Source: Escherichia coli (GTDB taxonomy: Bacteria; Pseudomonadota; Gammaproteobacteria; Enterobacterales; Enterobacteriaceae). From it: a DNA stretch of 64,000 nt. This document shows, piece by piece, positions 6,838 through 38,983 of this stretch (position 1 is its first letter; each line of letters begins with the position of its first letter). The translations under genes and the position numbers were made by a program. The DNA lies in assembly GCF_965641715.1 (NCBI RefSeq), contig NZ_OZ282453.1; one strand, 5' to 3'. The notes beneath the pieces are model-generated. The model saw nothing but the letters and a program-made list of their open reading frames with translations. It was not told the DNA's origin and made no database searches.

Positions 6838-6995
6838 GAATATTTTTTGGTAAGCGTCAAACATGCGCGTTCTGGTTGTGCTTAGCCGGAACCTGTGCGA
6901 GCACGATGCCAATAAGTGAAAGGCATCGTGCTATGAAGGGAGATTCTATCGATGTGGTCAATGGAAGACGGTGACCAGGGATAGGGCTTATGCAT

Positions 6996-7017
6996 AAAAA
7001 ATAAGCCCGTGTAAGGG
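6996..7017. repeat. attL core: 22-bp direct repeat aaaaaataagcccgtgtaaggg shared with attR
   Basis: Exact repeat found at 6996..7017 and 38957..38978; matches the P2 att core as I recall it. Confidence 0.7.
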
Positions 7018-7101
7018 CGTTTATATACCCTTACAACAGGGGCTTTCAGCGGTGCAATGCGGGTTTGCGCGGCACGCAAGACCACTGAAAGCCATAATAA
7101 A

Positions 7102-8115
7102 CTACCCTACTGTGGACACTGTGTGGACACTCTGAGAGCCAACACCACCACGTAGAGGATTAAGCGTTATCGCGTCCTGTAGGTACTCAGGGGCGAAGTG
7201 CGCATATGTCATTGTCTGCTCAATTCTTGAATGCCCAAGTATTCTCTGAAGCGTGATAATGTTGCCTCCGTTTATCATAAAGTGCGTGGCGAAGCTGTGC
7301 CGCAATGCGTGCGTAGCCTGACCCGGTGGTAGGTCGGGTTTCAGCTCCTTCATTAGCCGTCTGAACGCGGGATAGTTAGCATCAGTGAACAGATAGCCAC
7401 GCTTACCCGTTGTGATCATTGTTGCCAGTTCCTCGGATATAGGAACGGTTCGCGGCTTGTTGGTTTTTGTCTTAACGAAAGTGACGCGATTTTGAATGAT
7501 ATTTTCCGCTTTCAGTTTTGCTGCCTCACTCCATCTCGCGCCGGTGCTAAGGCAAAGAATCGCAATTTTTTTATTATCACCGTCCACTTTTGACAGCAGA
7601 AGCGCGATCTCCTCTTGCGTCAGGTAGCCGGTTTCTGGCTTATCCTCTTTGAGTCTTTTAAGACCTCGGAAAGGATGCTCCCCGAAAAATAGCTCCGCAT
7701 CTATCAACGCGGTAAACATCCCGCTAAGACACGTTAAATCACGATTTATACTCGATGGCTTGATGCCTTGAGAACGCCGCACAGTGCTGTATTGGCTTAT
7801 CAATGACTTAGTAATCTGAAAGGCACAAGGGTCACTGGTTATCTTTGTGAACAACTCTAACTTGCCCAGGTAATCTCGGCCGTGAGTTTCATACTTGCCT
7901 TTCAGCTCCCACCAGATTTTTGTTAGCTCTGACAGATGCCGCTTATCTGTCGGTTTCGCCAACCATTTTTTGTTGTGATGGTTGTACTGGGTATGCTTCT
8001 CGAAAGCGATAGCTTCGCTTTTCTTGTCAAATTTCCTGCGGATGCGCTTTCCGTTGCGCCCTGCAGGTCTAATGTCCACTTCATAACGACCATCATCGAG
8101 CTTTTTAACAGACAT
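7102..8115 (-). CDS. int: P2-type tyrosine integrase (337 aa)
   Basis: Near-identical to remembered P2 Int; start set at MSVKKLDDGRYEV; catalytic R..HxxR..Y region present. Confidence 0.9.
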   Translation of the reverse strand: MSVKKLDDGRYEVDIRPAGRNGKRIRRKFDKKSEAIAFEKHTQYNHHNKKWLAKPTDKRHLSELTKIWWELKGKYETHGRDYLGKLELFTKITSDPCAFQITKSLISQYSTVRRSQGIKPSSINRDLTCLSGMFTALIDAELFFGEHPFRGLKRLKEDKPETGYLTQEEIALLLSKVDGDNKKIAILCLSTGARWSEAAKLKAENIIQNRVTFVKTKTNKPRTVPISEELATMITTGKRGYLFTDANYPAFRRLMKELKPDLPPGQATHALRHSFATHFMINGGNIITLQRILGHSRIEQTMTYAHFAPEYLQDAITLNPLRGGVGSQSVHTVSTVG

Positions 8116-8211
8116 AAAGCCTCCCGATGATGTTACTGCGTACTTCAATTTCCTGATTTAAATAACAAAAACTCACCGTGCATTTACTGCACAGATAAGC
8201 ACCGTAAATGG

Positions 8212-8508
8212 TTAGCCAGTTTTCTGGTCTGAGTGGGGTGACGTTGTTGTCTGCTGCCCAAAGTGCGCGAGAGCCGGTGCAATCTGCCCAGCTTCTGGTG
8301 ATATCGTCTCAGTCATGAACCACATGGTATATTTTTTGAACTGTGGATGATTCAAAATCTTCATCACTGCTTGTATGCCCATATCTTTTACTCCCTTCTC
8401 ATAACTAGAAAGAGAGCTATACGGAACTCCAGTTAAGTCACTGAATTCTTTTCTATTCATACGTTCCGACTCACGCATGATGGCCAGCTTCTCGTTGACG
8501 GGTATCAT
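8212..8508 (-). CDS. P2 immunity repressor C (99 aa)
   Basis: Matches P2 C C-terminus (TPQFTKYTMWFMTE..SPHS.QKTG); start set at MIPVNEK. Confidence 0.8.
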   Translation of the reverse strand: MIPVNEKLAIMRESERMNRKEFSDLTGVPYSSLSSYEKGVKDMGIQAVMKILNHPQFKKYTMWFMTETISPEAGQIAPALAHFGQQTTTSPHSDQKTG

Positions 8509-8643
8509 CGTAATTAACACTCCACTATTGATAGAAAAACGATAACGGAGTAATCTTCGCTTCGTTACCGCAGATTTATGGCTCCAATATGGCAATTAAA
8601 AGCCATTAGGAGCAATTAAAACACTAACGAGGAATAGTCACAA
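8509..8643. promoter_or_regulatory. Divergent immunity switch region between C and cox (expected Pe/Pc promoters and operators)
   Basis: Position between divergent C and cox genes; inferred from P2 organisation, individual sites not mapped. Confidence 0.45.
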
Positions 8644-8919
8644 ATGAATAGGGTCATTGAGAGCGCGAGCGACGCGGTTCCGTATCAGGAGTTTGCGCGT
8701 CTTATTGGTAAAACCCCTGCTGCTGTCAAAGGGATGATTGAGAAAGGCAAACTACCGATAGTTGAGATGACTGATCCGCAGTCTACAAGTGGGAGAGCAG
8801 GGGAATACCGGGTATATCTGCCAGCATGGAACAAAGGCATGAAGATGGCCTATGACAGTCGCCCTAAAGAAATTCGTGATGGTTGGTTGATGTGGTTGGG
8901 ATTAGGTGAACCAGCATAA
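8644..8919 (+). CDS. cox: Cox excisionase / transcriptional regulator (91 aa)
   Basis: Strong similarity to remembered P2 Cox (PYQEFA.LIGK...GRAGEY.VYLPAWN...PKEIRDGWLMWLGLGEP). Confidence 0.85.
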   Translation: MNRVIESASDAVPYQEFARLIGKTPAAVKGMIEKGKLPIVEMTDPQSTSGRAGEYRVYLPAWNKGMKMAYDSRPKEIRDGWLMWLGLGEPA

Positions 8920-9100
8920 GGAGCCAGAAATGAAAGAGCCACGTTGTATAGCTCAGTTACTGCGTAACGAAAGTCCACGCCCGATGAAGTTCAACATCAC
9001 TCATGGTAAAGGGCGTAAAGGCATCATCATCCGCACTCGCAAGCCTGGATTTATTGCTATGGCTAAACGCTTTATGAAATCCCGAGGGATATCGTTATGA
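8906..9100 (+). CDS. Hypothetical early-operon protein (64 aa)
   Basis: ORF in early operon between cox and B; basic small protein. Confidence 0.4.
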   Translation: MNQHKEPEMKEPRCIAQLLRNESPRPMKFNITHGKGRKGIIIRTRKPGFIAMAKRFMKSRGISL

Positions 9101-9597
9101 CGGTTATGACTCTTGCATTAGTTCAAAAACAACCTGCAGCTCTACGCGTCGTTATAGGAAAGCATCTTGCGGAACCTCGCTGGCACGATACCTGTGATTT
9201 TTATAATCAGATGATGGAGCGTGACCGCTTGACTGTCTGTTTTCATGCTCGGTTAAAACAGCGTCACGCAGTAATGCGCTTTGAAGAAATGAATGATGTC
9301 GACCGCGAACGTCTGGCTTGTGCTATCGATGAGCTGCGCGCTGCTTTTTCAAAACGTCGTCAGGTTGGCGCAAGTGAATCTGCATATATTAGTTTTCTAA
9401 CGGTGGGTCAGCGCCGCTCTTTATTTCTACACGCGGGATTGAGTGAGGTCGAGTTCAATCAGCCTTACTGGCGCATTGACGAAGATGCTTGTTATTGGCG
9501 AGAGAAACTATTCCGCGCTTTGCGTGAGCTTTTTGGGTTATTTGAACACGCGCCAACGATATTAACCTCGGTAAAGCCTGAGCAGTATTTACATTAA
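9097..9597 (+). CDS. P2 gpB-like replication protein (166 aa)
   Basis: Size and position as P2 B, translationally coupled to neighbours. Confidence 0.7.
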   Translation: MTVMTLALVQKQPAALRVVIGKHLAEPRWHDTCDFYNQMMERDRLTVCFHARLKQRHAVMRFEEMNDVDRERLACAIDELRAAFSKRRQVGASESAYISFLTVGQRRSLFLHAGLSEVEFNQPYWRIDEDACYWREKLFRALRELFGLFEHAPTILTSVKPEQYLH

Positions 9598-9645
9598 TTA
9601 ATCTGGATTCGTTTTATTACACGCCTTACTGCGTGGGGATTCCTT

Positions 9646-9882
9646 TTGTCTGGAGATAGGCAAATGCATAAACAAAATAAAGTGCCGACGTGTGTGCTCT
9701 CGGTACATCTGGCGCAAGCGTTGCGCGATGCGCAGCTCGATACCGCGACCCGTTTATCCTCTCATTTTGATCGCCTAATTGCGCACATCAGTAAGTTAGA
9801 ACTCAACCGCACCGAGATCATCGAGCTATTGGGGCAAGAGTCCGAAAAATTGCACAACTCAATTTTTCATTGTGCTTGCTAA
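9646..9882 (+). CDS. Hypothetical early protein (P2 orf80-position)
   Basis: ORF only; position. Confidence 0.4.
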   Translation: MSGDRQMHKQNKVPTCVLSVHLAQALRDAQLDTATRLSSHFDRLIAHISKLELNRTEIIELLGQESEKLHNSIFHCAC

Positions 9883-9904
9883 TCAATTTTAGAAGGAGAC
9901 AAAA

Positions 9905-10180
9905 ATGAGTATCCGTATCGAGATAAATCATCAGTATGTAGTTACAAGCGATCGCTACCAGTTCATTTTGCAGGAAAAGAAAGTGGCGACTGCTGGAAAA
10001 AATAAAGGTAGCGAATGGCTTGATACTGTCGGGTATTACCCGACGATTCAAAAACTGATTTCTGGTCTGGTACTACATGACCTTTTAAATGGCGGTGCTG
10101 ATAGTTTTGCGGCGTTGGGTGAGCAGGTCGAGCAGTTGGGACTGCAATGTCAGACCGCGTTTTGTGCTGATGGCCGTTGA
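9905..10180 (+). CDS. Hypothetical early protein (P2 orf81/82-position)
   Basis: ORF only; position, RBS aaggagac upstream. Confidence 0.4.
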   Translation: MSIRIEINHQYVVTSDRYQFILQEKKVATAGKNKGSEWLDTVGYYPTIQKLISGLVLHDLLNGGADSFAALGEQVEQLGLQCQTAFCADGR

Positions 10181-12461
10181 GACTCGGGGGCGTATTGCCC
10201 CCTCGCTAGCCCTGCCAATATCTAAGCGCACCGGCGATACTTTCGTTGGTGCTTATCCCTGGAATGCTCCCCGCGCTGCCATTGGCCGTGACAGACCCCT
10301 TACACGTGCCGAATTCCGTCAGGTGCAAGGTGTTTTATACCGGATTGACCGCCTGCCTTTCTTTCTTAAGACGTTGTTTACTTCCCGTTATAACTTCATT
10401 CGTCGCACAAAGAGCCCGCCCGGGGCGCTCTATTTCCTGAAAAACACCTTTGAGCGGAAGCTGTTGCCGCGTCTTGAGCGCGTTAACGAGCTGTGCGGGA
10501 TGAATGAATCTGCGTCGATTGGTTTCTTGTCTGAGCGTGACGAATATGCGCGCTTGCCTGATATGAATGACAAAGAGCTGAAAAAATTTGCGGCCAGAAT
10601 TGCCGCGCAGCTCTGGCGTAAATACGAGGAACTCAGCGACGAATGGGCTGAGGCATTCGGCGGTAAAGAGACCCTTTTCACCGATGAGGCGCAGGTGCAC
10701 ATATATGGTCAGGTGGCTGGTGTTGCACGCGCGTTCAACTTAACCCCGCTCTACTGGAAAAAATACCGTAAGGGTCAGATGACGATCCGCATGGCGTTTT
10801 CCGCTATTTCCCGTCTGATAAAAGATGATTGGTGGGTTAACCAGCTCAAGGCGCAGCGTATGCGCTGGCGCGAGGCGCTGCTTATCGCTGCCGGTGAAGT
10901 CAACAAAGACCGTTCACCTTACGCCAGCAAAATGGCGATCCGCGAGGTTCACTCGCGCCGGCTGGCTAATCTCGAATACCTGAAATCCTGTGAGCTGGAA
11001 AACAAAGTTACCGGCGAACGTATCGACCTCATCAGTAAAGTCATGGGGAGTATTTCAAACCCTGAAATACGCCGTATGGAGCTGATGAACACCATTGCCG
11101 GAATTGAACGCTATGCGGCCAGCGTTGGTGATGTGGGAATGTTTATCACGCTGACCACGCCGTCGAAGTATCACCCGACCCGACAGGTCGGCAAAGGTGA
11201 CAGCAAAACGGTGCAGCTCAATCACGGCTGGAACGAAACCGCATTCACCCCTAAAAACGGCCAGCGCTATCTGTGCCGAATCTGGAGCCTGATGCGTACC
11301 GCTTTCAAAGATAACGATTTGGAAGTGTATGGGATGCGCGTTGTCGAGCCGCACCACGACGGCACGCCACACTGGCATATGATGCTTTTTTGCAAACTCA
11401 GTCAGCGTAAAGCTATCAACGAAATTATGCGTCGTTATGCCCTCAAAGAGGACGGACACGAAAAGGGCGCGGCAAAACAGCGCTTTGAGTCGCGTCACCT
11501 TAATCAGGGGGGCGCGGCGGGTTATATCGCCAAATACATTGCCAAAAATATCGACGGCTACGCGCTTGACGGTCAGCTCGATCACGATACCGGCAAATCT
11601 CTGAAAGATACGGCCGCAGCCGTAACCGCATGGGCGTCTACATGGCGTATCCCTCAGTTTAAACCGATTGGCCTCCCGACAATGGGCGCTTACCGCGAAC
11701 TGCGTAAGCTGCCGCGCGGGGTGAGTATCGCCAGCGAGTTTGACGACCGTGTCGAGGCCGTCCGGGCTGCTGCAGATGAGGGGGAATTTGACCTGTACAT
11801 CAGCGCGCAGGGTGGGGCAAACATGCCGCGTGATGCTCAGGCGGTCAGGGTCGCCCGTAAGGTGACGGATGAGGTAAACGAATACGAGGAGGATATCGAG
11901 AAAGTGGTCGGTATTTATGCCCCTCATCTTGGGGTGAGCCGCGTACATGTAACCCGTACAGCGGAATGGCGCATAGTTCCAAAGGTTTTGGCCGTTGAGC
12001 CTTTGACCTTAAAAAGCGGCTCTGCCGCGCCTCGGAGTCCTGTCAATAACTGTGGAAAGCTTGCCGACGGTGGCGATCCAGTTATGACACCTACACCGTC
12101 TGAGCAAGCCGCAGCGGTGTTAAATCTGATTGAGGCCGGGGTTATCGGCTGGAATGAGCCAGACGTCATGAAGGTTCTTAACGGCGCGTTAAAAGCTGGC
12201 GCACCTCGCAATAATCGCCAGCAAAGAAGCAATGCGCCACTCAAAACGAGCGAGCAAGCTCCATCAGCCAGGATGACAACACCAGAAAGGGATCGCGTGG
12301 CGAAAATTCGTTTCGATTTGGCTCAGGAGGGCATTACCCCAGAACGGTGGGCGCTCGAAGCGCTGGCGCGTGGGGCAACGGTGATTTATGGCGATAAAAA
12401 AATCAAATACGCGGCTGCTGATGAGTGGCCGGGATTCTCAATTCAAGAGGAGCAGAATTAA
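10170..12461 (+). CDS. P2 gpA rolling-circle replication initiation endonuclease (~763 aa)
   Basis: Extensive identity to remembered P2 A; start placed at MAVETRG rather than the upstream extension. Confidence 0.9.
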   Translation: MAVETRGRIAPSLALPISKRTGDTFVGAYPWNAPRAAIGRDRPLTRAEFRQVQGVLYRIDRLPFFLKTLFTSRYNFIRRTKSPPGALYFLKNTFERKLLPRLERVNELCGMNESASIGFLSERDEYARLPDMNDKELKKFAARIAAQLWRKYEELSDEWAEAFGGKETLFTDEAQVHIYGQVAGVARAFNLTPLYWKKYRKGQMTIRMAFSAISRLIKDDWWVNQLKAQRMRWREALLIAAGEVNKDRSPYASKMAIREVHSRRLANLEYLKSCELENKVTGERIDLISKVMGSISNPEIRRMELMNTIAGIERYAASVGDVGMFITLTTPSKYHPTRQVGKGDSKTVQLNHGWNETAFTPKNGQRYLCRIWSLMRTAFKDNDLEVYGMRVVEPHHDGTPHWHMMLFCKLSQRKAINEIMRRYALKEDGHEKGAAKQRFESRHLNQGGAAGYIAKYIAKNIDGYALDGQLDHDTGKSLKDTAAAVTAWASTWRIPQFKPIGLPTMGAYRELRKLPRGVSIASEFDDRVEAVRAAADEGEFDLYISAQGGANMPRDAQAVRVARKVTDEVNEYEEDIEKVVGIYAPHLGVSRVHVTRTAEWRIVPKVLAVEPLTLKSGSAAPRSPVNNCGKLADGGDPVMTPTPSEQAAAVLNLIEAGVIGWNEPDVMKVLNGALKAGAPRNNRQQRSNAPLKTSEQAPSARMTTPERDRVAKIRFDLAQEGITPERWALEALARGATVIYGDKKIKYAAADEWPGFSIQEEQN

Positions 12462-12925
12462 TGAGCAAAATCCATGAGTTAAAAATTGCACCTGAGTATT
12501 TTAACTCTGTGATATCTCAGGAAAAACGTGCTGAATTTCGTCTCAATGACCGCGATTATTCTAGCGGTGATATTCTCGGGTTGCATGAATGGGAACCGGT
12601 AAACAGATATACCGGGAAACGTGTATCAGTGAGGGTGACAAACGTTACGGATTTATCTGAATGGGCGGAAAATTATGTGATGCTGAGTTTTCAGTTAATG
12701 ATGCCAGATGTCCAGTGCGGTATGTCCCTAATGAACTGGAAAGAGTTAAGCGAGAAGGGGCTTGTTTTCAGAGTTAATCACGAAATTCTACACCCGTTAG
12801 GGCTGGCTATTAGATATGAAACACTTAACAGCGTTTCTGGTAGGGCTTACATCGCTGATGATGGTGTCTGGCAATATTCCGACAAGTTGGTCGCAGATGC
12901 TAAAAAAAATGGGTGGTTAAAATGA
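12461..12925 (+). CDS. DUF3850-like (ASCH/PUA-like) protein, 154 aa
   Basis: N-terminal HELKIAPEYF...EFRLNDRDY..GDIL motif; ATG overlaps gpA stop (TAATG). Confidence 0.5.
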   Translation: MSKIHELKIAPEYFNSVISQEKRAEFRLNDRDYSSGDILGLHEWEPVNRYTGKRVSVRVTNVTDLSEWAENYVMLSFQLMMPDVQCGMSLMNWKELSEKGLVFRVNHEILHPLGLAIRYETLNSVSGRAYIADDGVWQYSDKLVADAKKNGWLK

Positions 12926-13161
12926 GTCATATGCGAATGATGCCAGTGCCGCCGATACATTCAACGCAAAACATTAAGCTGATGGCCGTCGTACATCGCC
13001 TGCAACAAATTATGATTAACGAGAATCTGACCCCTGACGAACTGGTCGGGTGTGCCGGTGTCGTCCGGGATAATCACCGCAAATACAGCGATATCAGCAA
13101 TCCGAAAATTGAGGCGTTTCGGCCACCAAATATGGCAAAGCCACCACCGCGTCGACCATAG
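12913..13161 (+). CDS. Hypothetical small protein (82 aa)
   Basis: ORF only, proline-rich basic C-terminus. Confidence 0.3.
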   Translation: MVKMSHMRMMPVPPIHSTQNIKLMAVVHRLQQIMINENLTPDELVGCAGVVRDNHRKYSDISNPKIEAFRPPNMAKPPPRRP

Positions 13162-13443
13162 CAAACGCCGCCGGTGCTGAAACTTGTTTTCAGTGCCAGC
13201 GGTGTTGAGCAACGAGCCCCGCGAGACGTTAGCCTGCACCGTAGAGACCACCCCCAACCGGCACGATTAAAGTCGGTTTTATTATGCAATTTTCCCACAA
13301 TTTCCCGGTTTTTTAGCCGTGCATGCAACAGGTGCATTTTTTTGCATACGTTGGGGATGCCTGTTCTGGCCGCGCGCCGCCAGAGCAGGCGCGGATCCAG
13401 AGTGGTCATGCAACTGCATTAAAAACGACCCATAAAGCGGGCA

Positions 13444-13462
13444 GGCGAGGCGGGGTAAGCGT
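13444..13462. other. cos-like 19-mer ggcgaggcggggtaagcgt (first 12 nt match the P2 cohesive-end sequence as recalled)
   Basis: Partial match to remembered P2 cos GGCGAGGCGGGGAAAGCAC; location between A region and Q is as expected. Confidence 0.3.
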
Positions 13463-13533
13463 TGCGCGCGCCTGTCAAAGATATTAAGATTGTCTCAAAA
13501 TCGATTGATTTTATTGAACTAATGGAGCTAGGA

Positions 13534-15090
13534 ATGATTAAGGGTATAGGTCTTCAAAACTTCAGGAGCTTTGTCAACAAAACGTTTATTGATTTAAAAC
13601 CAATTACAGTATTTGTTGGTAAGAACAGCAGTGGTAAAAGTTCCCTATTGCGCACATTTCCTTTACTTCGTCAATCTGTAGAAGAAAATACTACTGGCCC
13701 AATACTATGGTATGGGAGATATGTGGATTTTGGCGATTTTACAGATGTACTTTCCCGAAACTCTGAAAAAAAAGAAATTACGTTTAGTTTTTCACTCTCA
13801 ATTCCGCCAGAGGTTTCACAAAGATATACATATTATCGTTCTACTGATTTAGCAAAGCAACCAACAGATATTGAAGCAGAGTTAACTGTTTACTCTAAAG
13901 ATAAAAAAACAAAAACGAAAACGATTAAGCTTATATTGGCTGATTTAACAATATTTATTTCAATGGATGAGAGTAGTAATGTTAAATTACTCATTGAATC
14001 AGATGATAAAACAATAGAGCGTGATGGGATAATAGCTAAAAATCTTGGGCAGTTCATACCAAATCTAATTTTGAAGGGTAAGGAAGACAGTCCTCCTCCA
14101 AGCACATCATTCTATTTGAGACATTCTAGGCATGACAGGGCGTTAGAATTGTCATTTATTGATTCAGCGGCGAAATATATAAAGAAATATTTCCATACTA
14201 AATCTGATATAAATCAAGTGACAGAGGCATTCAAAAGAATTGGCTTTATACCCAAAGCGTACGCTAGTAAATTAGTTGCTTTTCTATTTAAGGAACAAAA
14301 AGTTTTTAGTAGAAACTTTGAATTTCAACATGATGAAATAATGAATGAGTTATATCCATTTATAATTGGATGGAATATTAATAATCTTATAGATATAATA
14401 AATACATCCTTGTCAGATTCATTCAGAAATGTAAAGTACATAGCTCCACTGCGTGCTACATCAGAAAGATTTTATCGTTTTCAAGATTTACAGGTTAATG
14501 AGATAGATCATACTGGTTCCAATCTTGCAATGCTTTTGAATTCATTAAGACCGGCTGATAAATCAAAATTTGAAGATTGGACAAAGTTAAATTTTGATTT
14601 CATTATCAAGGTTGAACAAAGTGGCTCTCACTTTGCAATTTTAATAAACACCGGTGAAAATAGTGAGAACTATAATGTTAGTGATATGGGGTTTGGTTAT
14701 TCTCAGGTTTTGCCGATAGTTACAGCCATTTGGCTTGAGACAGAACGTCGTGCTACCACGGTTAGAAAACCTATAACATTTATCATTGAGCAGCCAGAAT
14801 TGCATTTACATCCGTCATATCAGCATAATTTAGCAAGTATTTTTGCAAAAGTAGTAACTAAAGCAAAAGAAAATAATGTAGATTTGAAGATAATTTTTGA
14901 GACACATAGCCAGACCATGATTGAAGCACTTGGTGAATATATTGAGGAAAATGAAAGTCTTTCACAGGATGATATTTCAATACTGGTATTTGAAAAAGAT
15001 GATAAGCAGCAGACTATAGTTAAGAAATCTTATTTTGACGAGAATGGTTTCCTAAAAAATTGGCCGGTTGGCTTTTTCTCGGGTAAGTAG
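13534..15090 (+). CDS. OLD/AAA_21-like ABC ATPase (518 aa), first gene of cargo operon
   Basis: Start MIKGIGLQNFRSF with GGAG RBS; Walker A GKNSSGKSS (13618..13644); Walker B-like FIIEQPELHLHP (14779..14814); FETHS H-loop; AT-rich. Confidence 0.8.
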   Translation: MIKGIGLQNFRSFVNKTFIDLKPITVFVGKNSSGKSSLLRTFPLLRQSVEENTTGPILWYGRYVDFGDFTDVLSRNSEKKEITFSFSLSIPPEVSQRYTYYRSTDLAKQPTDIEAELTVYSKDKKTKTKTIKLILADLTIFISMDESSNVKLLIESDDKTIERDGIIAKNLGQFIPNLILKGKEDSPPPSTSFYLRHSRHDRALELSFIDSAAKYIKKYFHTKSDINQVTEAFKRIGFIPKAYASKLVAFLFKEQKVFSRNFEFQHDEIMNELYPFIIGWNINNLIDIINTSLSDSFRNVKYIAPLRATSERFYRFQDLQVNEIDHTGSNLAMLLNSLRPADKSKFEDWTKLNFDFIIKVEQSGSHFAILINTGENSENYNVSDMGFGYSQVLPIVTAIWLETERRATTVRKPITFIIEQPELHLHPSYQHNLASIFAKVVTKAKENNVDLKIIFETHSQTMIEALGEYIEENESLSQDDISILVFEKDDKQQTIVKKSYFDENGFLKNWPVGFFSGK

Positions 15091-15092
15091 TT

Positions 15093-16205
15093 ATGTTGAT
15101 TAATATCGAAAATGCGACACCTGAGAAGGTGCTAAATAACTCATTTGCCATAGCGGTTGAAAATATACTTCGGGCATTCGCTGAACAAAAACACTTGGTT
15201 ATAGGGGCAAGGGTTTTTTTTAAAACTATTATCAATGATCAAAGCGGGCTTTATAGCCTTTCATCAAAAAGTTACGCGCAAGAGGCTTTGTCGGGTCTAA
15301 CAGAGTACTATGCTATCTTGGATCAGGTCTCATTTTATGTATCTGTCGACTTTAATATTAGTGATAAATCATTTAAATGGGTTCAGATCGGTGAATCTTT
15401 TAAATTTGTTTGTGGTCCATTGTATTTTAATGACTCGGCACAATTGCAAAAAACGAAAATAGTATGTGAAAATCCTTTGGATTCTGATTTTTTTAAGGTT
15501 ATAGCGGCTCATTATGCCGAAGGTATTAACTTATCTCGCTGCGAAATGGGTTTTATCGCTCTAAATGGCGGTGGGGGCAGTACTAAGGATATATTCGAGC
15601 GTGCAATTCAAAATAATGAGATAGTTTTTTGTATTGTGGATAATGACAAAAAACATCCTGGAGCCCCATTCGGAGGTACTTGCTCACATTTTTTGGGCTC
15701 ACAAATTACTCGCTCAGGTTTCGTGGAGATTTTAGATGTACATGAAATAGAATCTCTAGTTCCTTTATCGACAATTGAAGATGTATTAAGAAGTCAAAGT
15801 CAATTGCAACAAAAAGAAAAATCTCTCATTTTCTTTAAGCATCTTTGCTCCGTAGATGAATCAGTAAAATTTTATATTGACCATAAAAAAGGTTTTGATT
15901 TTAAAACAGCCCTTGAACTCGATCGAAAACATGGTGCATATTGGCGTCCGATATTAAAGAAGCTTGATATAAAATATGATTGTGAGTATATCGAATCAAA
16001 ACGTTGTAGCTGCAACGCTGCTTGTGTAAGTTATGATGGTTTTGGAGAGAATTTGCTCAGCAATACATTGAAATATATACAAAAGGGAAGTTTAAAAAAA
16101 TATAATCCTCACCTAACACCAGTGCTTTCTGATAAATGGTATAAGTTAGGTAAGAATTTCTTTAGTTGGAGTTGTGGTCCATATAAAAAAGCAAGGGTTG
16201 GTTAA
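15093..16205 (+). CDS. Partner protein (370 aa) with Toprim-like signature, possible nuclease effector
   Basis: ATG 2 nt after ATPase stop; YAEG (15519..15524), GGGG, IVDNDKKHP (DND at 15639..15647); C-terminal Cys cluster; AT-rich. Confidence 0.65.
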   Translation: MLINIENATPEKVLNNSFAIAVENILRAFAEQKHLVIGARVFFKTIINDQSGLYSLSSKSYAQEALSGLTEYYAILDQVSFYVSVDFNISDKSFKWVQIGESFKFVCGPLYFNDSAQLQKTKIVCENPLDSDFFKVIAAHYAEGINLSRCEMGFIALNGGGGSTKDIFERAIQNNEIVFCIVDNDKKHPGAPFGGTCSHFLGSQITRSGFVEILDVHEIESLVPLSTIEDVLRSQSQLQQKEKSLIFFKHLCSVDESVKFYIDHKKGFDFKTALELDRKHGAYWRPILKKLDIKYDCEYIESKRCSCNAACVSYDGFGENLLSNTLKYIQKGSLKKYNPHLTPVLSDKWYKLGKNFFSWSCGPYKKARVG

Positions 16206-16210
16206 ATTAT

Positions 16211-16235
16211 CACAGCCCCGATAAAGTGGGCTGTG
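16211..16235. terminator. Hairpin (cacagccc/gggctgtg) downstream of cargo operon, possible terminator
   Basis: 8-bp inverted repeat followed by T-rich stretch. Confidence 0.35.
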
Positions 16236-16300
16236 ATGTTATTATCTGTGGTTCTTGAGTTACAGGGCTGAATATAATGTTGAGATGTTTATTTTGAAAA

Positions 16301-17308
16301 TCAAAGTGAATATTTTTTAAATCTTATAACTTCCATTTCTAACCAGTTGTTTAGTTCTTTGAACCGTTCCTGTAAAGGAGTTAACTCATTTCGGACAAAC
16401 ACTTGTGCAGCTTTTACAACATCACCAAAACCGCCAACATTGTCAGGCATAATTCCCATCATTTGTGGTGGTACCCTATGAGCACTCAACAAATCTTCTG
16501 CACTAACCTTTTTGATATTGAAAAAATCATCTTTCGTGGCGACTTCACTCAACGGCACAATCTTGATGCCATCCGGTTTCCCGTTGGGCGCGTAGAAAAA
16601 CAGGTTTTTGAAATTCCCGAGTCCTTTTGAGTCGCGCATCGCGTTACGGAGAGATTCAACATCGGTGCTGCTCTGTGCCGCGTCGGTGACATACATGATG
16701 TACCCCGCATGTGCGCCATTCTGATAATACTTGCGGCGAAACAGGGTAGCGGATTCATTCAGCCAGGCGGAATTAAGCGCGCTCAGGTATTCCGGCATCC
16801 CGTACAGCTCCTGATTGATATCGGGCTCAAGCAGGTGACACACAGAACCGGGGGCGAACGGGTGCGGCTGGGTGTAGCTCGACACGTACCAGTAAACGCC
16901 ATCTTCGACACCCCGGCGGGTGTATTTGGCCGGTGAGGTTTCCAGTTTTAAGAGCTGGCCGGTGACGCTCATGCGCTTCTCAAGATAGCCGTTGGCAAAA
17001 ACCAGATAATCAAGCACAAGGCGACTGAAATCCTGACGTGACAGCAACGGGTGCGGGATATAGGTGCTCGTCAGAATGTTACGTTTCACGTAAATCGGCG
17101 AGCTGTGATGGACGGCGGCGCGCAGGCTTTTTGCCAGTCCCGAGAAATTGACCGGCGGCTCGTACCATTTCCCGTTATTGATACACTCTACGTAGTCGAG
17201 GATGTCGCGGCGATCCAGAACGGGAGAAGGCTCACCAAAGGTGAACGCCTCCATTTTTTGCGGTGCGCTGGCGGTCATTGTGGCGGGTTTCTTCTGTCGT
17301 TTTTTCAT
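16301..17308 (-). CDS. Portal protein (P2 gpQ-like)
   Basis: 335-aa ORF, position opposite terminase P, similarity to P2 Q from memory. Confidence 0.85.
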   Translation of the reverse strand: MKKRQKKPATMTASAPQKMEAFTFGEPSPVLDRRDILDYVECINNGKWYEPPVNFSGLAKSLRAAVHHSSPIYVKRNILTSTYIPHPLLSRQDFSRLVLDYLVFANGYLEKRMSVTGQLLKLETSPAKYTRRGVEDGVYWYVSSYTQPHPFAPGSVCHLLEPDINQELYGMPEYLSALNSAWLNESATLFRRKYYQNGAHAGYIMYVTDAAQSSTDVESLRNAMRDSKGLGNFKNLFFYAPNGKPDGIKIVPLSEVATKDDFFNIKKVSAEDLLSAHRVPPQMMGIMPDNVGGFGDVVKAAQVFVRNELTPLQERFKELNNWLEMEVIRFKKYSL

Positions 17309-17309
17309 C

Positions 17310-19079
17310 TTAGTTAATATCCAGAATTGAGGTTGATTGCATGCCGCTACCGGCGGAAAGCGGCTCGTTTAACAGGGCGTGCATGGTCGCCCACGCAATA
17401 TCCGCGTGACTGGCTTCCTCGCTGCGGCTGGCTTCATAGGTGGCACTGCGCCCGCTGCTGGTCATGGTTTTACGGATCGCCATAAATGACTGCGTGATGT
17501 CGGTTGCTCCGGCGTCATATTCCAGACACCCGCGTCGGATGGTGTCTTTCGCTTTCAGCACCATCGCGGTTTTCATTTCCGGCGTGTAGCGAATGGCGCG
17601 CGCTGCCGGGAAGAAGGAGCGCACGAGCTGGTAAACACCCTGGCCGATGCCGGTCGCATCGATGCCGATATACTCGACGCAATATTTCTCTGTCAGCTCG
17701 CGGATGGCCTCGGCCTGCGTCGCAAAACCCATCCCTTTCCACTGGTGACGCTCAAGGATGCGGAACTTGCCACCGGCAACCAGTGGCGGAGCCAGTACCG
17801 CACAGCCTGCGCTGTCGCCGGTGTGCGACGGGTCATAGCCAATCCAGACCGGACGCCAGTTAAACGGACGGTCAGAGAACGGCGCAAAGTCCTCCCATTC
17901 TTCCATCGCATCGACCATGCAGCGCTGCAGCTCCTCGAACGGGAATACCGACGCTTTATCGTCGACGAATTCGCACATGAAGAGGTTGCGGAAATCGTCG
18001 GCGCTGTTTTCCTGTTTCAGTTGATCCAGATTAAACAGGGTGCAGCCACCGGCGAGGGCATCCTCAATGGTGACGATCTGCCGCCACTGCCCGTCCGGGC
18101 ACAGCACGCCACCGGCGAGCGCCTTATGACTGATGTCAATGTCGACACGCTCACTCGCGCTGCTGCGTCCCCTGTTGAACAGCTCACCTGACCAGAACGG
18201 ATACGCGCCGTGCGCCAGCGTCGAAGGGGTTGAAAAATAGGTGGTGCGCAGGTGGGATTGTGACGCCATCCCCGAGGCCACTTTACGCAGCCGCTGAAAG
18301 TTGGGGATCCAGAAGATTTCATCGACATACAGGTCGCCGTTATGGCTCTGCGCGGTGTTGGAGTTTGTCCCGAGGAAAATCAGCTCTGCACCGTTGTTGC
18401 CGATAACAATCGGGTCGCCTGACAGGTCGACGTCGACCATGCGCGCAAAGGCGATGATGTACTTTCGGAACACGTAAGCCAGCGTCTTACTGGCTGACAA
18501 AAATATCTGGTTTTGCCCGGTTTTGAGGGCGCGCAGTAATGACTCACGGGCAAAGTAGAACGTCGCGCCAATCTGGCGTGATTTGAGGATGTGGCGAATA
18601 CGGTGCGCGATACCGGCCTTGTGCCAGTTGAGCTGATACTCAAAGGACTGGTCGAAGAAAATCTCTTCCAGCTTTTCGATGGCCTCATCGCTGAAAAAAT
18701 TGCGTTTCGGCTTGCGGCGATCGCCCTTGTTACGACTGGCAATGTTGGGGTTTAAATCCACTTCATTACCGGTCTGGCCGTAGCGGTTGATGCGTGCGAA
18801 CCGTTCCATCTGGCGTGACAGAAAGTCAGCGACCTTAAAGTCATGCGGCGTCAGGTCAGGCTTTGCATAAAGCTGAATCAGGCGCGCCTCGAGCGTCGTT
18901 TCCACGCGGTTAAGCGGGGCGGTTTCCTCCCACCCGTCACGCTGTTTCCAGCTCTGCACGGTCGGGCGCTTAACCTGCAGTGTGTCGGCGATTTGTGGCA
19001 CGGAAAATCCCTGCCAGAACAACAGCCGCGCCTGTCGTCGCGGGTCATGCAAAAGGGAGAGGTCAGTCGAAATGGTCAT
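17310..19079 (-). CDS. Terminase large subunit (P2 gpP-like, 589 aa)
   Basis: Start at ATG giving MTISTDLSLLHDPRRQARLL as in P2 P; the TTG at 19109 is rejected. Confidence 0.9.
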   Translation of the reverse strand: MTISTDLSLLHDPRRQARLLFWQGFSVPQIADTLQVKRPTVQSWKQRDGWEETAPLNRVETTLEARLIQLYAKPDLTPHDFKVADFLSRQMERFARINRYGQTGNEVDLNPNIASRNKGDRRKPKRNFFSDEAIEKLEEIFFDQSFEYQLNWHKAGIAHRIRHILKSRQIGATFYFARESLLRALKTGQNQIFLSASKTLAYVFRKYIIAFARMVDVDLSGDPIVIGNNGAELIFLGTNSNTAQSHNGDLYVDEIFWIPNFQRLRKVASGMASQSHLRTTYFSTPSTLAHGAYPFWSGELFNRGRSSASERVDIDISHKALAGGVLCPDGQWRQIVTIEDALAGGCTLFNLDQLKQENSADDFRNLFMCEFVDDKASVFPFEELQRCMVDAMEEWEDFAPFSDRPFNWRPVWIGYDPSHTGDSAGCAVLAPPLVAGGKFRILERHQWKGMGFATQAEAIRELTEKYCVEYIGIDATGIGQGVYQLVRSFFPAARAIRYTPEMKTAMVLKAKDTIRRGCLEYDAGATDITQSFMAIRKTMTSSGRSATYEASRSEEASHADIAWATMHALLNEPLSAGSGMQSTSILDIN

Positions 19080-19109
19080 GGTTGCCTCGTACTGGTGAAT
19101 ACGGGGCAA

Positions 19110-21231: not shown

Positions 21232-21987
21232 ATGACGAGTCCCGCAGCGCGTCACATGATGCGGGTCTCGGCCTCTGAAACTGCGCGGCGGGCTGCTGCT
21301 CCGCTGCGCAATGCAACTGCCTATGAGCAGATGCTCGTCAAGCTGGCCGCAGACTGTCGCACGTTAAAACAAATCCGCTCCAACGAGCGCAAGGCAGACA
21401 AAAAACGTGAGCTGTTACCGTTTTATCTGCCGTGGGTGGCTGGAGTCATCGCCAGTGGCAAAGGGGCACAGGATGACATCGTCATGACCGTCATGCTCTG
21501 GCGTCTTGATGCTGATGACATTGCCGGTGCGCTGGAAATCGCCCGCTACGCGATGACGTATGGCCTGACCATGCCGACCGGCGGCCACCGCCGCACAACG
21601 CCGTATTTACTGGCCGAAGAGGTCGCCCTGTCAGCGCAGCGCTTGCTTGATGCAAAACAGCCAGTCGTGCTGTCGCTCCTGCTCGACACCATCGCACTGA
21701 CCGAACGTGCAGACATGCCCGATATCGTGCGCGCGAAGTTGTACAAAATCACCGGCTACGTGCTGCGTGATGCTGGCAACCTGACTGACGCGCTGGCGCA
21801 CCTGCAGCGTGCGATCCAGTTAGAACGGACTATCGGTGTGAAAAAGGATATTGAGCAGCTTGAACGCGCGCTGAGACCCAAACCAGAACCTGCACCCAAA
21901 CAGAATAAACCGCGTACGCGCAAACCTGCCGCTAAACCGGCGGCACAGCGCGGGCGTCCCCCGAAAGCGGCAAAAGCCGCAGGTTAA
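21232..21987 (+). CDS. Terminase small subunit (P2 gpM-like)
   Basis: 251 aa, position, basic PKP-rich C-terminus. Confidence 0.8.
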   Translation: MTSPAARHMMRVSASETARRAAAPLRNATAYEQMLVKLAADCRTLKQIRSNERKADKKRELLPFYLPWVAGVIASGKGAQDDIVMTVMLWRLDADDIAGALEIARYAMTYGLTMPTGGHRRTTPYLLAEEVALSAQRLLDAKQPVVLSLLLDTIALTERADMPDIVRAKLYKITGYVLRDAGNLTDALAHLQRAIQLERTIGVKKDIEQLERALRPKPEPAPKQNKPRTRKPAAKPAAQRGRPPKAAKAAG

Positions 21988-22796: not shown

Positions 22797-23008
22797 GTGT
22801 GGAAAAAATCACGACCTTTATCGCTTACTGGCTGGCCGTGGGGCTGGCGTATTTCGGGGCGATGTCGCCCGAAAAGCTGGCGCTGTATGTGGGGAGTGCC
22901 TGCGCCATTTTTACCGCGCTGACGAATTACTGGTTTAAGCGCAAAACCTTTCGCTATCTGAAATCGCTCGGACTCGATAAGGGGGCGATACGTGAGCTCA
23001 ATCATTAA
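22787..23008 (+). CDS. Putative holin/pinholin (73 aa, two hydrophobic segments)
   Basis: Small membrane protein immediately upstream of SAR endolysin. Confidence 0.5.
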   Translation: MGLSVEKITTFIAYWLAVGLAYFGAMSPEKLALYVGSACAIFTALTNYWFKRKTFRYLKSLGLDKGAIRELNH

Positions 23009-23501
23009 ACGCTGCAGTGTGGCCGCCGTGCTGGCGCTGGCGGCACTGGTGCCTGACTTTCGTCTGCTTAACACCTCGCCCGAGGGGCTGGCGCTGATTG
23101 CTGACCTTGAAGGATGTCGCCTGACGCCTTACCAGTGCAGCGCGGGCGTGTGGACGTCGGGCATTGGCCACACTGCCGGGGTTGTCCCGAAAGGGGATAT
23201 TACCGAACAGCGCGCGGCGGAAAACCTCGTCGCGGATGTGCTCAACACTGAGCAACGGCTCGCGGTCTGTGTGCCGGTGGATATGCCACCGCGCGTCTAT
23301 GACACGCTGGTCAGTTTTGCCTTTAACGTGGGAACGGGGGCCGCCTGCCGGTCGACGCTGGTCTCGTATATCAAACGTCATCAGTGGTGGCAGGCGTGCG
23401 ACCAGCTCACCCGCTGGGTGTATGTGAAGGGTGTCCGAAACCGGGGGCTGGAAAACCGCCGCGATCGGGAGTGGGCTTACTGCGTTAAGGGGATGCAATG
23501 A
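22992..23501 (+). CDS. SAR endolysin (phage lysozyme family) with N-terminal signal-anchor-release segment
   Basis: N-terminal hydrophobic CSVAAVLALAALV; lysozyme-like core (GLALIADLEGCRLTPY...GIGHT). Confidence 0.8.
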   Translation: MSSIIKRCSVAAVLALAALVPDFRLLNTSPEGLALIADLEGCRLTPYQCSAGVWTSGIGHTAGVVPKGDITEQRAAENLVADVLNTEQRLAVCVPVDMPPRVYDTLVSFAFNVGTGAACRSTLVSYIKRHQWWQACDQLTRWVYVKGVRNRGLENRRDREWAYCVKGMQ

Positions 23502-23923
23502 AAGTGCTGATTATTCTGCTGGCCGGGTTGCTCGCCATGGTGCTGTGGCTGCGCCACGATAACGCGAATTTATCCCGCTCCTTTGAAAAGGCGAACCGGG
23601 TCGCCAATGAGCAAAAGACGACGATTGGCATGCTGAAAAATCAGTTTGCCGTATCGCAGCGCATCGCCAGGACGAATGAAGCCGTGCAGGTCAGGCTCAG
23701 TGACGAGCTGAACGCCGCCGGAGAGCTGGCGGCAAGACGTGAACAAACCATAACGAGGCTGCTGAATGAAAACGAGGATTTGCGCCGCTGGTATAGCGCT
23801 GATTTGCCTGATGCTGTGCGCCGGTTGCACATCCGCACCGGCTGCGCCTCCGCTGCCTATTGTTTACAACGCCTGCCCGAAGGTGAGCTTCTGCCCGATG
23901 CCGGGCAGCGATCCCACGACTAA
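23498..23923 (+). CDS. i-spanin (LysB/Rz-like)
   Basis: N-terminal TM segment, coiled-coil rich, position after endolysin. Confidence 0.6.
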   Translation: MKVLIILLAGLLAMVLWLRHDNANLSRSFEKANRVANEQKTTIGMLKNQFAVSQRIARTNEAVQVRLSDELNAAGELAARREQTITRLLNENEDLRRWYSADLPDAVRRLHIRTGCASAAYCLQRLPEGELLPDAGQRSHD

Positions 23924-25038: not shown

Positions 25039-25791
25039 CTAACGTTCGAATATTATTATCACCCCAAGAGTGAGATGTATATGATCTTCTATTTGTTCAT
25101 ATTCTTCTTGGGTGTAAGAAAGTTTAGCTAATTCTTCTGTTGCTGAAAAGACATCAATGGATACTTGGACGCCTGATGGGATTTCATTTTTTATTTCATT
25201 AATGTATTTGTTGTATTTTCTTGTGATTAGTATTATTGCGCGATCTCTGTCGACGGTGGTTGAGCAATATCGATTGGATTTGCTGTTGTTATTGTGGAAT
25301 GATTCGAATGCGCAATTGAGGGCAAGTCTTAGATTTGATGATCCTGTATTTCCAGTGTGATTGAAGTATTCTATGTTTCTTCTTAAGTCTTCAAATAGTT
25401 TTGCCTTATTTGGATTGTCCCCTTTAACTTCAATAGCACATTTTGGATAATCAAACCCATTATTATTGCCTAGTATGGCAATGTCTATCCTACCTTTTCT
25501 GGTTGTGTTTGCTTTGATTCTTAGTATTTGCCTTGAAAATATTTTCCCCGGCGTTAGTCTTTTTGAAAATGGCACCGTTGAAGTTATAAAATCCCCTGTA
25601 TCATATTCAAAAATTATTTTCTCATCATCTATGTGAAAATTTTTACTATCAAGTAGGGCTTTGCCTATTGATACAGTAGCGACGTATTCGGTATTGATTT
25701 TACCACCAGAACTGAAATTCATTAAACGTGTGATTTTAGCTGCATTGGACATGCCATCCTTTACTGCTGTGATTATTTCGTAATTGTCCAT
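25039..25791 (-). CDS. AT-rich cargo protein (250 aa) with PD-(D/E)xK-like nuclease motif
   Basis: Opposite strand to flanking tail genes; motif GRIDIAIL..(17 aa)..AIEVKGDN (D103, E121, K123; 25423..25485); strongly AT-rich. Confidence 0.6.
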   Translation of the reverse strand: MDNYEIITAVKDGMSNAAKITRLMNFSSGGKINTEYVATVSIGKALLDSKNFHIDDEKIIFEYDTGDFITSTVPFSKRLTPGKIFSRQILRIKANTTRKGRIDIAILGNNNGFDYPKCAIEVKGDNPNKAKLFEDLRRNIEYFNHTGNTGSSNLRLALNCAFESFHNNNSKSNRYCSTTVDRDRAIILITRKYNKYINEIKNEIPSGVQVSIDVFSATEELAKLSYTQEEYEQIEDHIHLTLGVIIIFER

Positions 25792-30229: not shown

Positions 30230-30807
30230 TGACTTTCAAAATGACCGGGAAAAGCCGGACAATCACTGTTTATAACTATCGCGCAGATACCTGTGAATTT
30301 ATTGGAAAAGGTGACGCCCTGATCCCACCATTTACCGGACTCCCTGCCTGTTGTACCAGTGAAAAACCGCCAGAAACCAGCGCGGGATGTATTCCCGTTT
30401 ACGACACTGAAAGCGGACGATGGAACATCACTGAAGACCACAGGGGTGAGGTTGTCTATGACACTGAAACAGGTCATCAGATGGAGATAACCGAACCGGG
30501 TAAATATCCGACAGGGACAACAACCGCTGCACCTGAAAACCCGTGGCAAAAATGGAATGGTAAAGCATGGATTGATGATGCTGATGCAGAACGGAATGCA
30601 TTGACTGAGTCTGCGAAAAACAACAAAAGCATGCTTCTTAAGCAGGCCAATACTGCGGTTGCGACATTACAGGACGCTGTTGATCTGGAGATGGCAACCG
30701 AAGATGAAAAAGCACAGCTCGCGGCATGGAGGAAATACCGTGTTTTACTGAGCCGCATCCAGCCAGAGAATGCCCCGGATATTGAATGGCCGCCGCTGCC
30801 AGTCTGA
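30229..30807 (+). CDS. Tail fibre assembly chaperone (G-like)
   Basis: 192 aa, translationally coupled to H. Confidence 0.75.
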   Translation: MTFKMTGKSRTITVYNYRADTCEFIGKGDALIPPFTGLPACCTSEKPPETSAGCIPVYDTESGRWNITEDHRGEVVYDTETGHQMEITEPGKYPTGTTTAAPENPWQKWNGKAWIDDADAERNALTESAKNNKSMLLKQANTAVATLQDAVDLEMATEDEKAQLAAWRKYRVLLSRIQPENAPDIEWPPLPV

Positions 30808-37866: not shown

Positions 37867-38718
37867 TTGAACAATATCCCCATATCTACTCAATGGACTT
37901 TAGACGCTACGGGTGAAGTTGGACGCTCATCAGTAAATTCTGTTTATATGATTATATGTCCTGCGACAGGCTCGAAAGGATCTGGTTTTTTAATAGATAA
38001 TGGGTTAATAGTAACGAACGAGCATGTTATCACTGGATGCTCTACAAATCAGATTTTCGCAATTTCAGCTTATGGACAGAAGATTCCAATTTCTCAAAAA
38101 TGGATAGATTCTGATCGCGATTTAGCTGTGCTGAGACCTGCCATTACCCAGACTGGTGGGCTAAGTATTGTTAAGGATAATGATCTTAAAGTTGGTGAAT
38201 CAGTAACAACTTGGGGATACCCATTAGGATACAACGGTCCTGCACCGTTACTATCCGTTGGTTATCTAGCAGGATTTAACTCATACCAAACCGCCAAGGG
38301 ACAAAAAAAACATCTAGTGGTAAATGGGGCATTTAACTCAGGAAATTCTGGTGGAGCTCTTTTAAAAGCTTCAGATAATAAAGTAATAGGTATTGTAGTG
38401 AGTAAGCATGCTCCTATCAGTCAATACCATCAATCAGCTATTGAAGCTTTGTCTGAAAATATGAGTGGCGTCACCTATACCGCTACTAATGACGCTGGAG
38501 AAACTAAAAGTTTTGTAGAATCTCAAATTGTAGCAGAATTATTGATTCATATGAGAAGTCTAACTCAAGTTATGATTGGAGAAGCAATTGCAGCAGAGGA
38601 ATTACTTTCGATGCTTAGCGAAATTGACTTGAGTCCACCACAATCTATGTCAAGAAATGCCTTATGTCATTGCGGGAGTGGAAAACGCTTCAAAGAATGT
38701 CATGGAAAGATATCCTAG
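37867..38718 (+). CDS. AT-rich cargo: trypsin-like (S1/chymotrypsin fold) serine protease with C-terminal SEC-C zinc-binding motif
   Basis: TTG start with strong aaaggag RBS 7 nt upstream; catalytic-triad-like TNEHV / DLAVL / GNSGGAL; C-terminal CHCGSGKRFKECHG (38662..38703). Confidence 0.65.
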   Translation: MNNIPISTQWTLDATGEVGRSSVNSVYMIICPATGSKGSGFLIDNGLIVTNEHVITGCSTNQIFAISAYGQKIPISQKWIDSDRDLAVLRPAITQTGGLSIVKDNDLKVGESVTTWGYPLGYNGPAPLLSVGYLAGFNSYQTAKGQKKHLVVNGAFNSGNSGGALLKASDNKVIGIVVSKHAPISQYHQSAIEALSENMSGVTYTATNDAGETKSFVESQIVAELLIHMRSLTQVMIGEAIAAEELLSMLSEIDLSPPQSMSRNALCHCGSGKRFKECHGKIS

Positions 38719-38956: not shown

Positions 38957-38983
38957 AAAAAATAAGCCCGTGTAAGGGAGATT
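38957..38983. repeat. attR core aaaaaataagcccgtgtaagggagatt (matches the 27-bp P2 att core as recalled), overlapping cyaR 3' end
   Basis: Direct repeat with attL; identity to remembered P2 attP core. Confidence 0.75.

Follow-up and report, generated by a model that had tools for sequence, protein, structure and literature searches.

P2-type cos ends are 5'-extruding (PMC3931495), and a 55-bp core is credited to Ziermann and Calendar (1990) by several later papers (PMC5694545, PMC9594776, PMC3931495). In the P2 record (NC_001895) cosL is annotated at positions 1-19 as GGCGAGGCGGGGAAAGCAC, and in the record of phage 186 (U32222) cos is annotated at 1-19 as GGCGTGGCGGGGAAAGCAT, with the remark 'top strand cut at 5' end and bottom strand cut at 3' end'. 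The surroundings of cos are also described as a place for accessory genes. A cos-proximal defence hotspot between A and Q was described by Rousset et al., 2022 (PMC9122126), and PMC5694545 reports additional ORFs in the interval from cosL to the Q homologue and suggests a hotspot there (with reference to Dodd and Egan 1996 and Nakayama 1999); phiCTX and phiRSY1 carry foreign genes in this slot. Here a P2-like locus from Escherichia coli was compared with these systems. Since all of these features have been published, from the cos sequence and its 55-bp core to the cosL-Q slot and the defence hotspot next to cos, the site is an ordinary one of an already described kind.

The window, by which we mean the whole analysed stretch of 64,000 nucleotides, contains a prophage that spans 6996-38978. 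Its borders are two exact direct repeats of the 22-bp sequence AAAAAATAAGCCCGTGTAAGGG on the + strand, attL at 6996-7017 and attR at 38957-38978, from which a unit length of 31,961 bp was obtained. The flanking chromosome is E. coli-like (mdtC-mdtD-baeSR-yegQ, up to 99.1% identity). The int gene (7108-8115) adjoins attL and is 84% identical to P2 Int. The replication endonuclease gene A follows on the + strand at 10089-12461 (Phage_GPA, 5.8e-109; 74% to P2 A, with the alignment to P2 A beginning at 10170, inside the gene), and the final conserved gene before cos, at 12425-12925 on the + strand, encodes a DUF3850 protein similar to P2 orf91 (DUF3850, 1.8e-18; 53% to P2 Orf91). On the - strand lie the portal gene, the homologue of P2 Q (16301-17308; Phage_portal, 1.1e-15; 75% to P2 Q, aligned over residues 1-339 free of stops), and the large terminase gene, the homologue of P2 P (17310-19109; Terminase_6N, Terminase_6C and Terminase_5; 83% to P2 P). 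The gene of the small, endonuclease subunit of the terminase, the homologue of P2 M, is found on the + strand at 21232-21987 (68% to P2 M over the full length) and is labelled 'terminase endonuclease subunit' in an E. coli relative. The local order is A, the DUF3850 gene, a small ORF, about 280 bp of non-coding DNA, cos, the cargo, Q (-) and P (-).

A tblastn comparison of P2 proteins with the window gave full-length or near-full-length matches free of stops for Q, P, O, N, M, L, X, R, S, V, W, J, I, FI, FII, E, T, U, D, ogr, int, C, cox, B and A, and partial matches for H, G and lysB. The lysis proteins Y, K and lysA gave no tblastn match anywhere in the window. ORFs of similar size are located at 22800-23550, where P2 has Y, K and lysA, and non-homologous genes appear to have taken the place of the lysis cassette. 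Judged on the P2 genes tested, the prophage is intact-looking.

At 13444-13462 the + strand reads GGCGAGGCGGGGTAAGCGT, the string ggcgaggcggggtaagcgt being confirmed at these positions. A first-pass annotation had called this stretch cos-like on the strength of 12 initial nucleotides shared with the P2 cohesive end, and this was correct, as positions 1-12 are identical to the cosL annotated in NC_001895. The alignment to the cos regions of P2 and 186, which had been proposed there as a check, was carried out; the 19-mer agreed at 16 of 19 positions with each of the annotated cos sequences of P2, 186 and P4, and the flanks were conserved as well. The site shares with cos of P2 and 186 its position between the A side and Q and the right half-site TGCGCGC, and the cognate M and P terminase genes are present in the prophage. 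It differs from them by a T at position 13, which is also found in its E. coli relatives, and by a private G at position 18. Among P2-like IMG/VR loci the commonest cohesive-end allele was GGCGAGGCGGGGATAGCAC (62/85), so the AAAGCAC of the P2 reference is not the commonest form; variation in these loci was confined to positions 5, 13, 14 and 19, together with singletons at positions 8, 17 and 18, the last being the window's own G.

To compare the whole core, the right and left genome ends of P2, 186 and P4 were joined. The core of the window (13415-13469) consists of 29 nt on the right-end side, the 19-mer and TGCGCGC, that is TGCATTAAAAACGACCCATAAAGCGGGCA, GGCGAGGCGGGGTAAGCGT and TGCGCGC, corresponding to TGCATTAAAACCGCCCCGTGAAGCGGGCG, GGCGAGGCGGGGAAAGCAC and TGCGCGC in P2. 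Identity over the core was 47/55 to P2, 50/55 to 186 and 46/55 to P4. Anchoring 80 unique related sequences on the site showed near-invariance from -36 to +26. A longer universal left arm of cos was considered and rejected: ungapped pairwise walking is confounded by indels around -37, so the support is limited to the near-invariant island from about -36 to +26. On the other side conservation breaks off exactly 7 nt past the right edge of the 19-mer, which is explained by the near-symmetric 7-nt half-sites at the nicks. The right half-site TGCGCGC (13463-13469) has the reverse complement GCGCGCA, which mirrors GCGGGCA; the 7 nt located 5' of the predicted nicks are thus GCGGGCA on the top and GCGCGCA on the bottom strand, symmetric at 6/7 positions in the window, and the corresponding rotational symmetry in P2, 186 and P4 is 5-6/7.

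Upstream of the core, a non-coding right-end flank (13162-13414, + strand) is common to 186-type phages. The segment 13162-13443, about 280 bp and non-coding, is 85.5% identical to positions 30342-30624 of 186, and 89% identical to Yersinia Eganvirus phages; inverted repeats are present in the flank at 13359-13401. A 411-bp query around the site matched 109 phage records, all of P2/186 type, and the linear records of 186, Erwinia EtG, Salmonella SEN1 and PSP3 stop at query position 294, which is window position 13443, the base directly 5' of the 19-mer. Homology, these record ends opposite 13443, the synteny from A and orf91 to Q, and intact P and M genes support the identification of 13444-13462 as cos of the P2-like prophage, as the first-pass annotation had conditionally assumed. 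On this evidence we regard it as very likely that 13444-13462 is the cosN of the P2-like (Peduoviridae) prophage at 6996-38978, cut by the prophage's own terminase, and that a swappable putative defence cassette lies beyond 13469.

Because a 19-mer is short, a chance GC-rich match was considered, as was a cos belonging to a P4-like satellite or to another remnant unrelated to the surrounding prophage. Nothing beyond the shortness of the sequence spoke for such an origin. When the P2 19-mer was searched with up to 3 mismatches on both strands of the 64-kb window, 13444-13462 was the single site recovered, against 0.01 matches expected by chance from dinucleotide-preserving shuffles. The flanking homology to 186 breaks off exactly where the cut falls, P4 genes are absent from the vicinity, and P2-type A and Q enclose the site within att-bounded P2-like DNA. 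Flank homology, chance expectation and P2 gene context thus refute an origin by chance or from a remnant, to which we assign a negligible probability. It is also very improbable that the block has been conserved for transcription, as a leftward terminator or a promoter of the cargo, and not for packaging. A terminator-like hairpin with a T-run does lie on the - strand at 13442-13428, within the left half of the cos core, and a weak promoter-like match, TTGCGC-17-TAAGAT (8/12 in a manual reading), overlaps 13462-13490. However, the stem of the hairpin comprises no more than 5 pairs, two being G-T, and no compensatory changes were seen between P2 and the window, for which reason it was rejected as the cause of the conservation. 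The promoter-like match did not reach the scan threshold, nor is it conserved among the other filled slots; it was therefore not accepted as the cargo promoter, and a consensus scan of 13470-13534 called none. Moreover, the block coincides exactly with cos as defined by experiment in P2, 186 and P4.

The private G at position 18 (13461) raises a further alternative, namely that the site is a true cos homologue which has been inactivated or weakened by an A-to-G change, leaving a grounded or poorly packaged prophage whose genome end is merely historical. At this position an A is found in 84 of 85 aligned sequences, and P2, 186, P4 and about 80 IMG/VR loci examined all have A. The 34 complete E. 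coli genomes that carry the same locus have 79/80 identity to the window and an A at 13461, and direct alignment of the window with one of these genomes and with one IMG/VR contig confirmed the G as the sole difference in 80 bp. The exact 19-mer had no match in IMG/VR, a pattern covering the window and E. coli variants (R at position 18) followed by TGCGCGC had none in GTDB species representatives, and no perfect match to the 80-bp region around the site was found among complete E. coli genomes, so that the G18 allele is a singleton. It is located 2 nt from the predicted bottom-strand nick, and cleavage could be reduced. Against this, G18 is only one of about 12 differences in 9.6 kb from an E. 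coli relative and therefore resembles ordinary drift. Its neighbours at positions 5, 13, 14 and 19 vary among working phages, and distant P2-like phages differ throughout positions 13-19 of the cohesive end (PMC3931495, PMC5247547, PMC5694545). The two cohesive ends would still be complementary since both derive from one site, and all tested P2 packaging and structural genes are intact. Loss or weakening of cos function is accordingly held to be unlikely, although it is the alternative to which we give most weight, and a working cosN remains the preferred reading.

If the site is a working cosN, the prophage terminase (M, 21232-21987; P, 17310-19109) would, after excision and replication, recognise the core at 13415-13469. 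By homology to P2 and 186, the top strand would be nicked at 13443/13444 and the bottom strand at 13462/13463, and the expected product is a linear genome of 31,961 bp with 19-nt 5' overhangs. Sequence beyond 13469 (+26) and up to the Q stop is presumably dispensable for packaging, as natural cassettes and P4 replace the sequence there. The site thus fixes the predicted physical ends of the prophage and the length of its unit, and the comparative survey amounts to a natural deletion analysis of the P2-family cos, in which no sequence to the right of the cohesive end is kept past its first 7 nt, in agreement with P4. The current understanding of cos is left unchanged by these results.

P2 and 186 have a GT-rich spacer of about 160 bp and the tQ terminator after cos, whereas the window has a low-GC cargo cassette of 2.84 kb (13470-16310, + strand) in the place of the cos-tQ spacer of about 160 bp found in cargo-free relatives. 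Its left edge lies 8 bases past the 19-mer, at the junction 13469/13470. All external homology ends at 13469, both in phage records and in E. coli prophages that lack this cargo, the matches of the latter ending at query position 65. DNA homology to Q of cargo-free relatives restarts at 16310-16317, by the Q stop codon, and these two limits together identify the 2.84-kb cassette as a replacement of spacer and tQ. In agreement with this, the GC content per 100 nt is 0.20-0.46 from 13501 to about 16500, compared with 0.5-0.6 in the flanks. The sharp junctions most likely reflect the limits of essential sequence, the cos core on one side and Q on the other, and to judge by their positions the cassettes are probably swapped by recombination in the conserved flanks. 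Between the cargo stop and the Q stop an inverted repeat, TCACAGCCC...GGGCTGTGA, is present at 16210-16245; the consensus scan did not call it, and it may be a bidirectional terminator that replaces tQ.

A cargo boundary inside Q was considered and rejected, because homology to cargo-free Q reaches to about 10-15 nt from the stop codon; this places the cassette boundary at the Q stop. A sharp shift in SNP density at about 16,500 is a separate mosaic junction. The latter, inside Q, was seen in comparison with the prophage of E. coli WP2-S18-ESBL-07, from which the window differs at about 12 positions over 6900-16500 and by about 30 differences per 500 bp from 16500 onward. This jump indicates that the early region with the cargo and the late genes have different recent histories.

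The cargo operon between cos and Q was found where the first-pass annotation had placed it, at 13534-16205, with cos at 13444-13462 and Q at 16301-17308. It begins 64 nt past the cos core, with the ATPase gene first. Cargo gene 1 (13534-15090, + strand) encodes a 518-aa ABC/OLD-type ATPase with a DUF3696 tail, similar to NsnB. Pfam matches were AAA_15 (2.4e-27), AAA_21 (7e-19) and DUF3696 (3.6e-7), and PADLOC matches were NsnB (3.7e-55), PDC-M55A (6.9e-46) and AriA (3.1e-31), the NsnB profile covering mainly residues 277-515. Cargo gene 2 (15093-16205, + strand) encodes a 370-aa partner with a weak PADLOC match to PDC-M55B (2e-4) and no Pfam family even at E 0.1. It always occurred together with gene 1, in six IMG/VR loci. 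Five P2-like loci carry members of this cargo family in the equivalent slot, with 73-100% amino acid identity and next to three different 19-mers. Once the pair of ATPase and partner was found outside a P2 context (locus L094, 6001-8669; 72% and 60% amino acid identity), where neither cos nor A nor Q of P2 type lies within 6 kb; this is a different mobile context.

A DUF3696 tail is a feature of NsnB in the Menshen system, NsnABC (PMC12065111), and gene 1 shares with NsnB the combination of an ABC ATPase with a C-terminal DUF3696 helix. However, NsnA, a ParB/DUF262 protein, is encoded upstream of NsnB in Menshen, and there is no DUF262 gene in 13470-16310. In PARIS (AriAB) an AAA_15/21 ATPase is accompanied by AriB, a DUF4435/Toprim protein, whereas the 370-aa partner in the window has no Pfam match. 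The downstream gene does sit at the position of NsnC or AriB. As both a DUF262 NsnA and a DUF4435 AriB are missing, the pair was filed under neither system; the PADLOC candidate PDC-M55 is matched by gene 1 through PDC-M55A and, weakly, by gene 2 through PDC-M55B. From its profile matches (NsnB, PDC-M55A, AriA-like) the two-gene cassette is a putative anti-phage system, and the exact borders of this main cargo cassette, 13470-16310, should be useful for follow-up on the NsnB-like pair.

The window cassette lies in the same slot as the foreign genes of phiCTX and phiRSY1 between cosL and Q (PMC5694545). As in the P2 hotspot of Rousset et al. (PMC9122126), where variable, low-GC, short operons of defence type lie between gpA and gpQ by cos, the window locus has accessory genes between gpA and gpQ that adjoin cos and vary among relatives. 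In P2 itself, tin and old are found across cos, at the right end of the genome, whereas the cargo of the window is in the left-end sub-slot. To see how this slot is used, 80 IMG/VR loci were gathered via the Q protein, and cos, the end of A and the Q stop were located in each. All three landmarks were present in 71 loci, a sample that is biased to close Q relatives and whose members are not independent. In these the distance from cos to Q ranged over 177-2842 bp (177-194 bp in 58 loci, 390-717 bp in 4 and 1.7-2.8 kb in 9) and that from A to cos over 538-4776 bp. Other cassettes of at least 1.5 kb thus fill the left slot in 9/71 related loci, at the same junction and in the same orientation as in the window. 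The nine inserts have a GC content of 0.35-0.38, start directly after TGCGCG(C) and contain two + strand genes that point away from cos. Their PADLOC matches comprised a CBASS cyclase with a 2TM effector, PD-T4-4, DUF262 proteins (NsnA/PD-T4-2-like), PDC-S02 and a DndB-like protein; two proteins had no match. Across loci the left slot holds at least 8 different contents. Where it is filled (at least 1.5 kb), the median distance from A to cos is 992 bp, compared with 2248 bp (Mann-Whitney p = 2e-4, in this biased and non-independent sample), which suggests that cargo is usually present on one side of cos or the other and not on both.

P4, which is packaged by the P2 terminase, diverges from P2 directly after the core, and its own cargo gop-beta starts there, with gop at 247. 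As in the window, an accessory or defence operon transcribed outward follows the core cos of P4 on the left-end side, immediately past YGCGCGC. P4 differs from the window in that the context of A and Q is missing and the cargo is a different one (the gop-beta-cII hotspot). Exchange of cassettes between P2 and P4 via the shared cos core was considered and rejected, as the cargo turned up in no P4 context and, according to a 2026 preprint, defence genes hardly ever pass between P2 and P4 (10.64898/2026.02.27.708500). Given this near absence of exchange, the common layout is read as parallel use of one dispensable position and not as a sharing of cassettes.

By its coordinates the cargo operon is 90-2,762 nt away from the left end predicted for the virion DNA, that is within 0.3-8.6% of the genome. 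The first-pass annotation had reasoned that, were the site cos, the operon would enter or leave the capsid ahead of all other DNA; as an either/or this holds, as it does for any end-proximal gene, and neither alternative is singled out. A full-text literature search found no statement as to which end of P2 or 186 enters the capsid first, and strict last-in-first-out ejection has been questioned for lambda (PMC10287942). Defence genes act from the prophage, for which distance from cos is irrelevant, and the order of entry and exit is probably irrelevant to the function of the cargo. A more far-reaching, and in our view unlikely, proposal is that the cos core of roughly 60 bp forms a fixed island which splits the A-Q hotspot into two seldom co-filled slots, one per virion end, and that placement at the left end is selected. 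In the left-end slot, which P4 uses as well, operons always read away from cos and start no more than 1 nt from the bottom-strand half-site. The recognition sequences on the right-end side suggest that P2 could be packaged right end first; if so, defence operons in the left slot would be the last DNA in, and if ejection were also last-in-first-out, a new host would receive them before any other DNA. Left-end placement would then possibly be selected rather than merely tolerated.

Two further low-GC positions of the prophage carry genes with PADLOC matches. A Tin homologue is encoded on the - strand at 25042-25791 (PADLOC Tin, 5.6e-93; 56% to P2 Tin) and occupies the low-GC slot between S and V, where P2 carries orf30; in P2, tin adjoins old in the slot between A and cos. 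Between ogr and attR, at 37867-38718 (+ strand), a low-GC gene encodes a protein of 283 aa that combines a Trypsin_2 peptidase domain with a SEC-C motif at its C terminus and that matched RT-Protease_XI protease regions and PDC-M35A in PADLOC. The ogr-attR position is thereby a third cargo slot of the same prophage.
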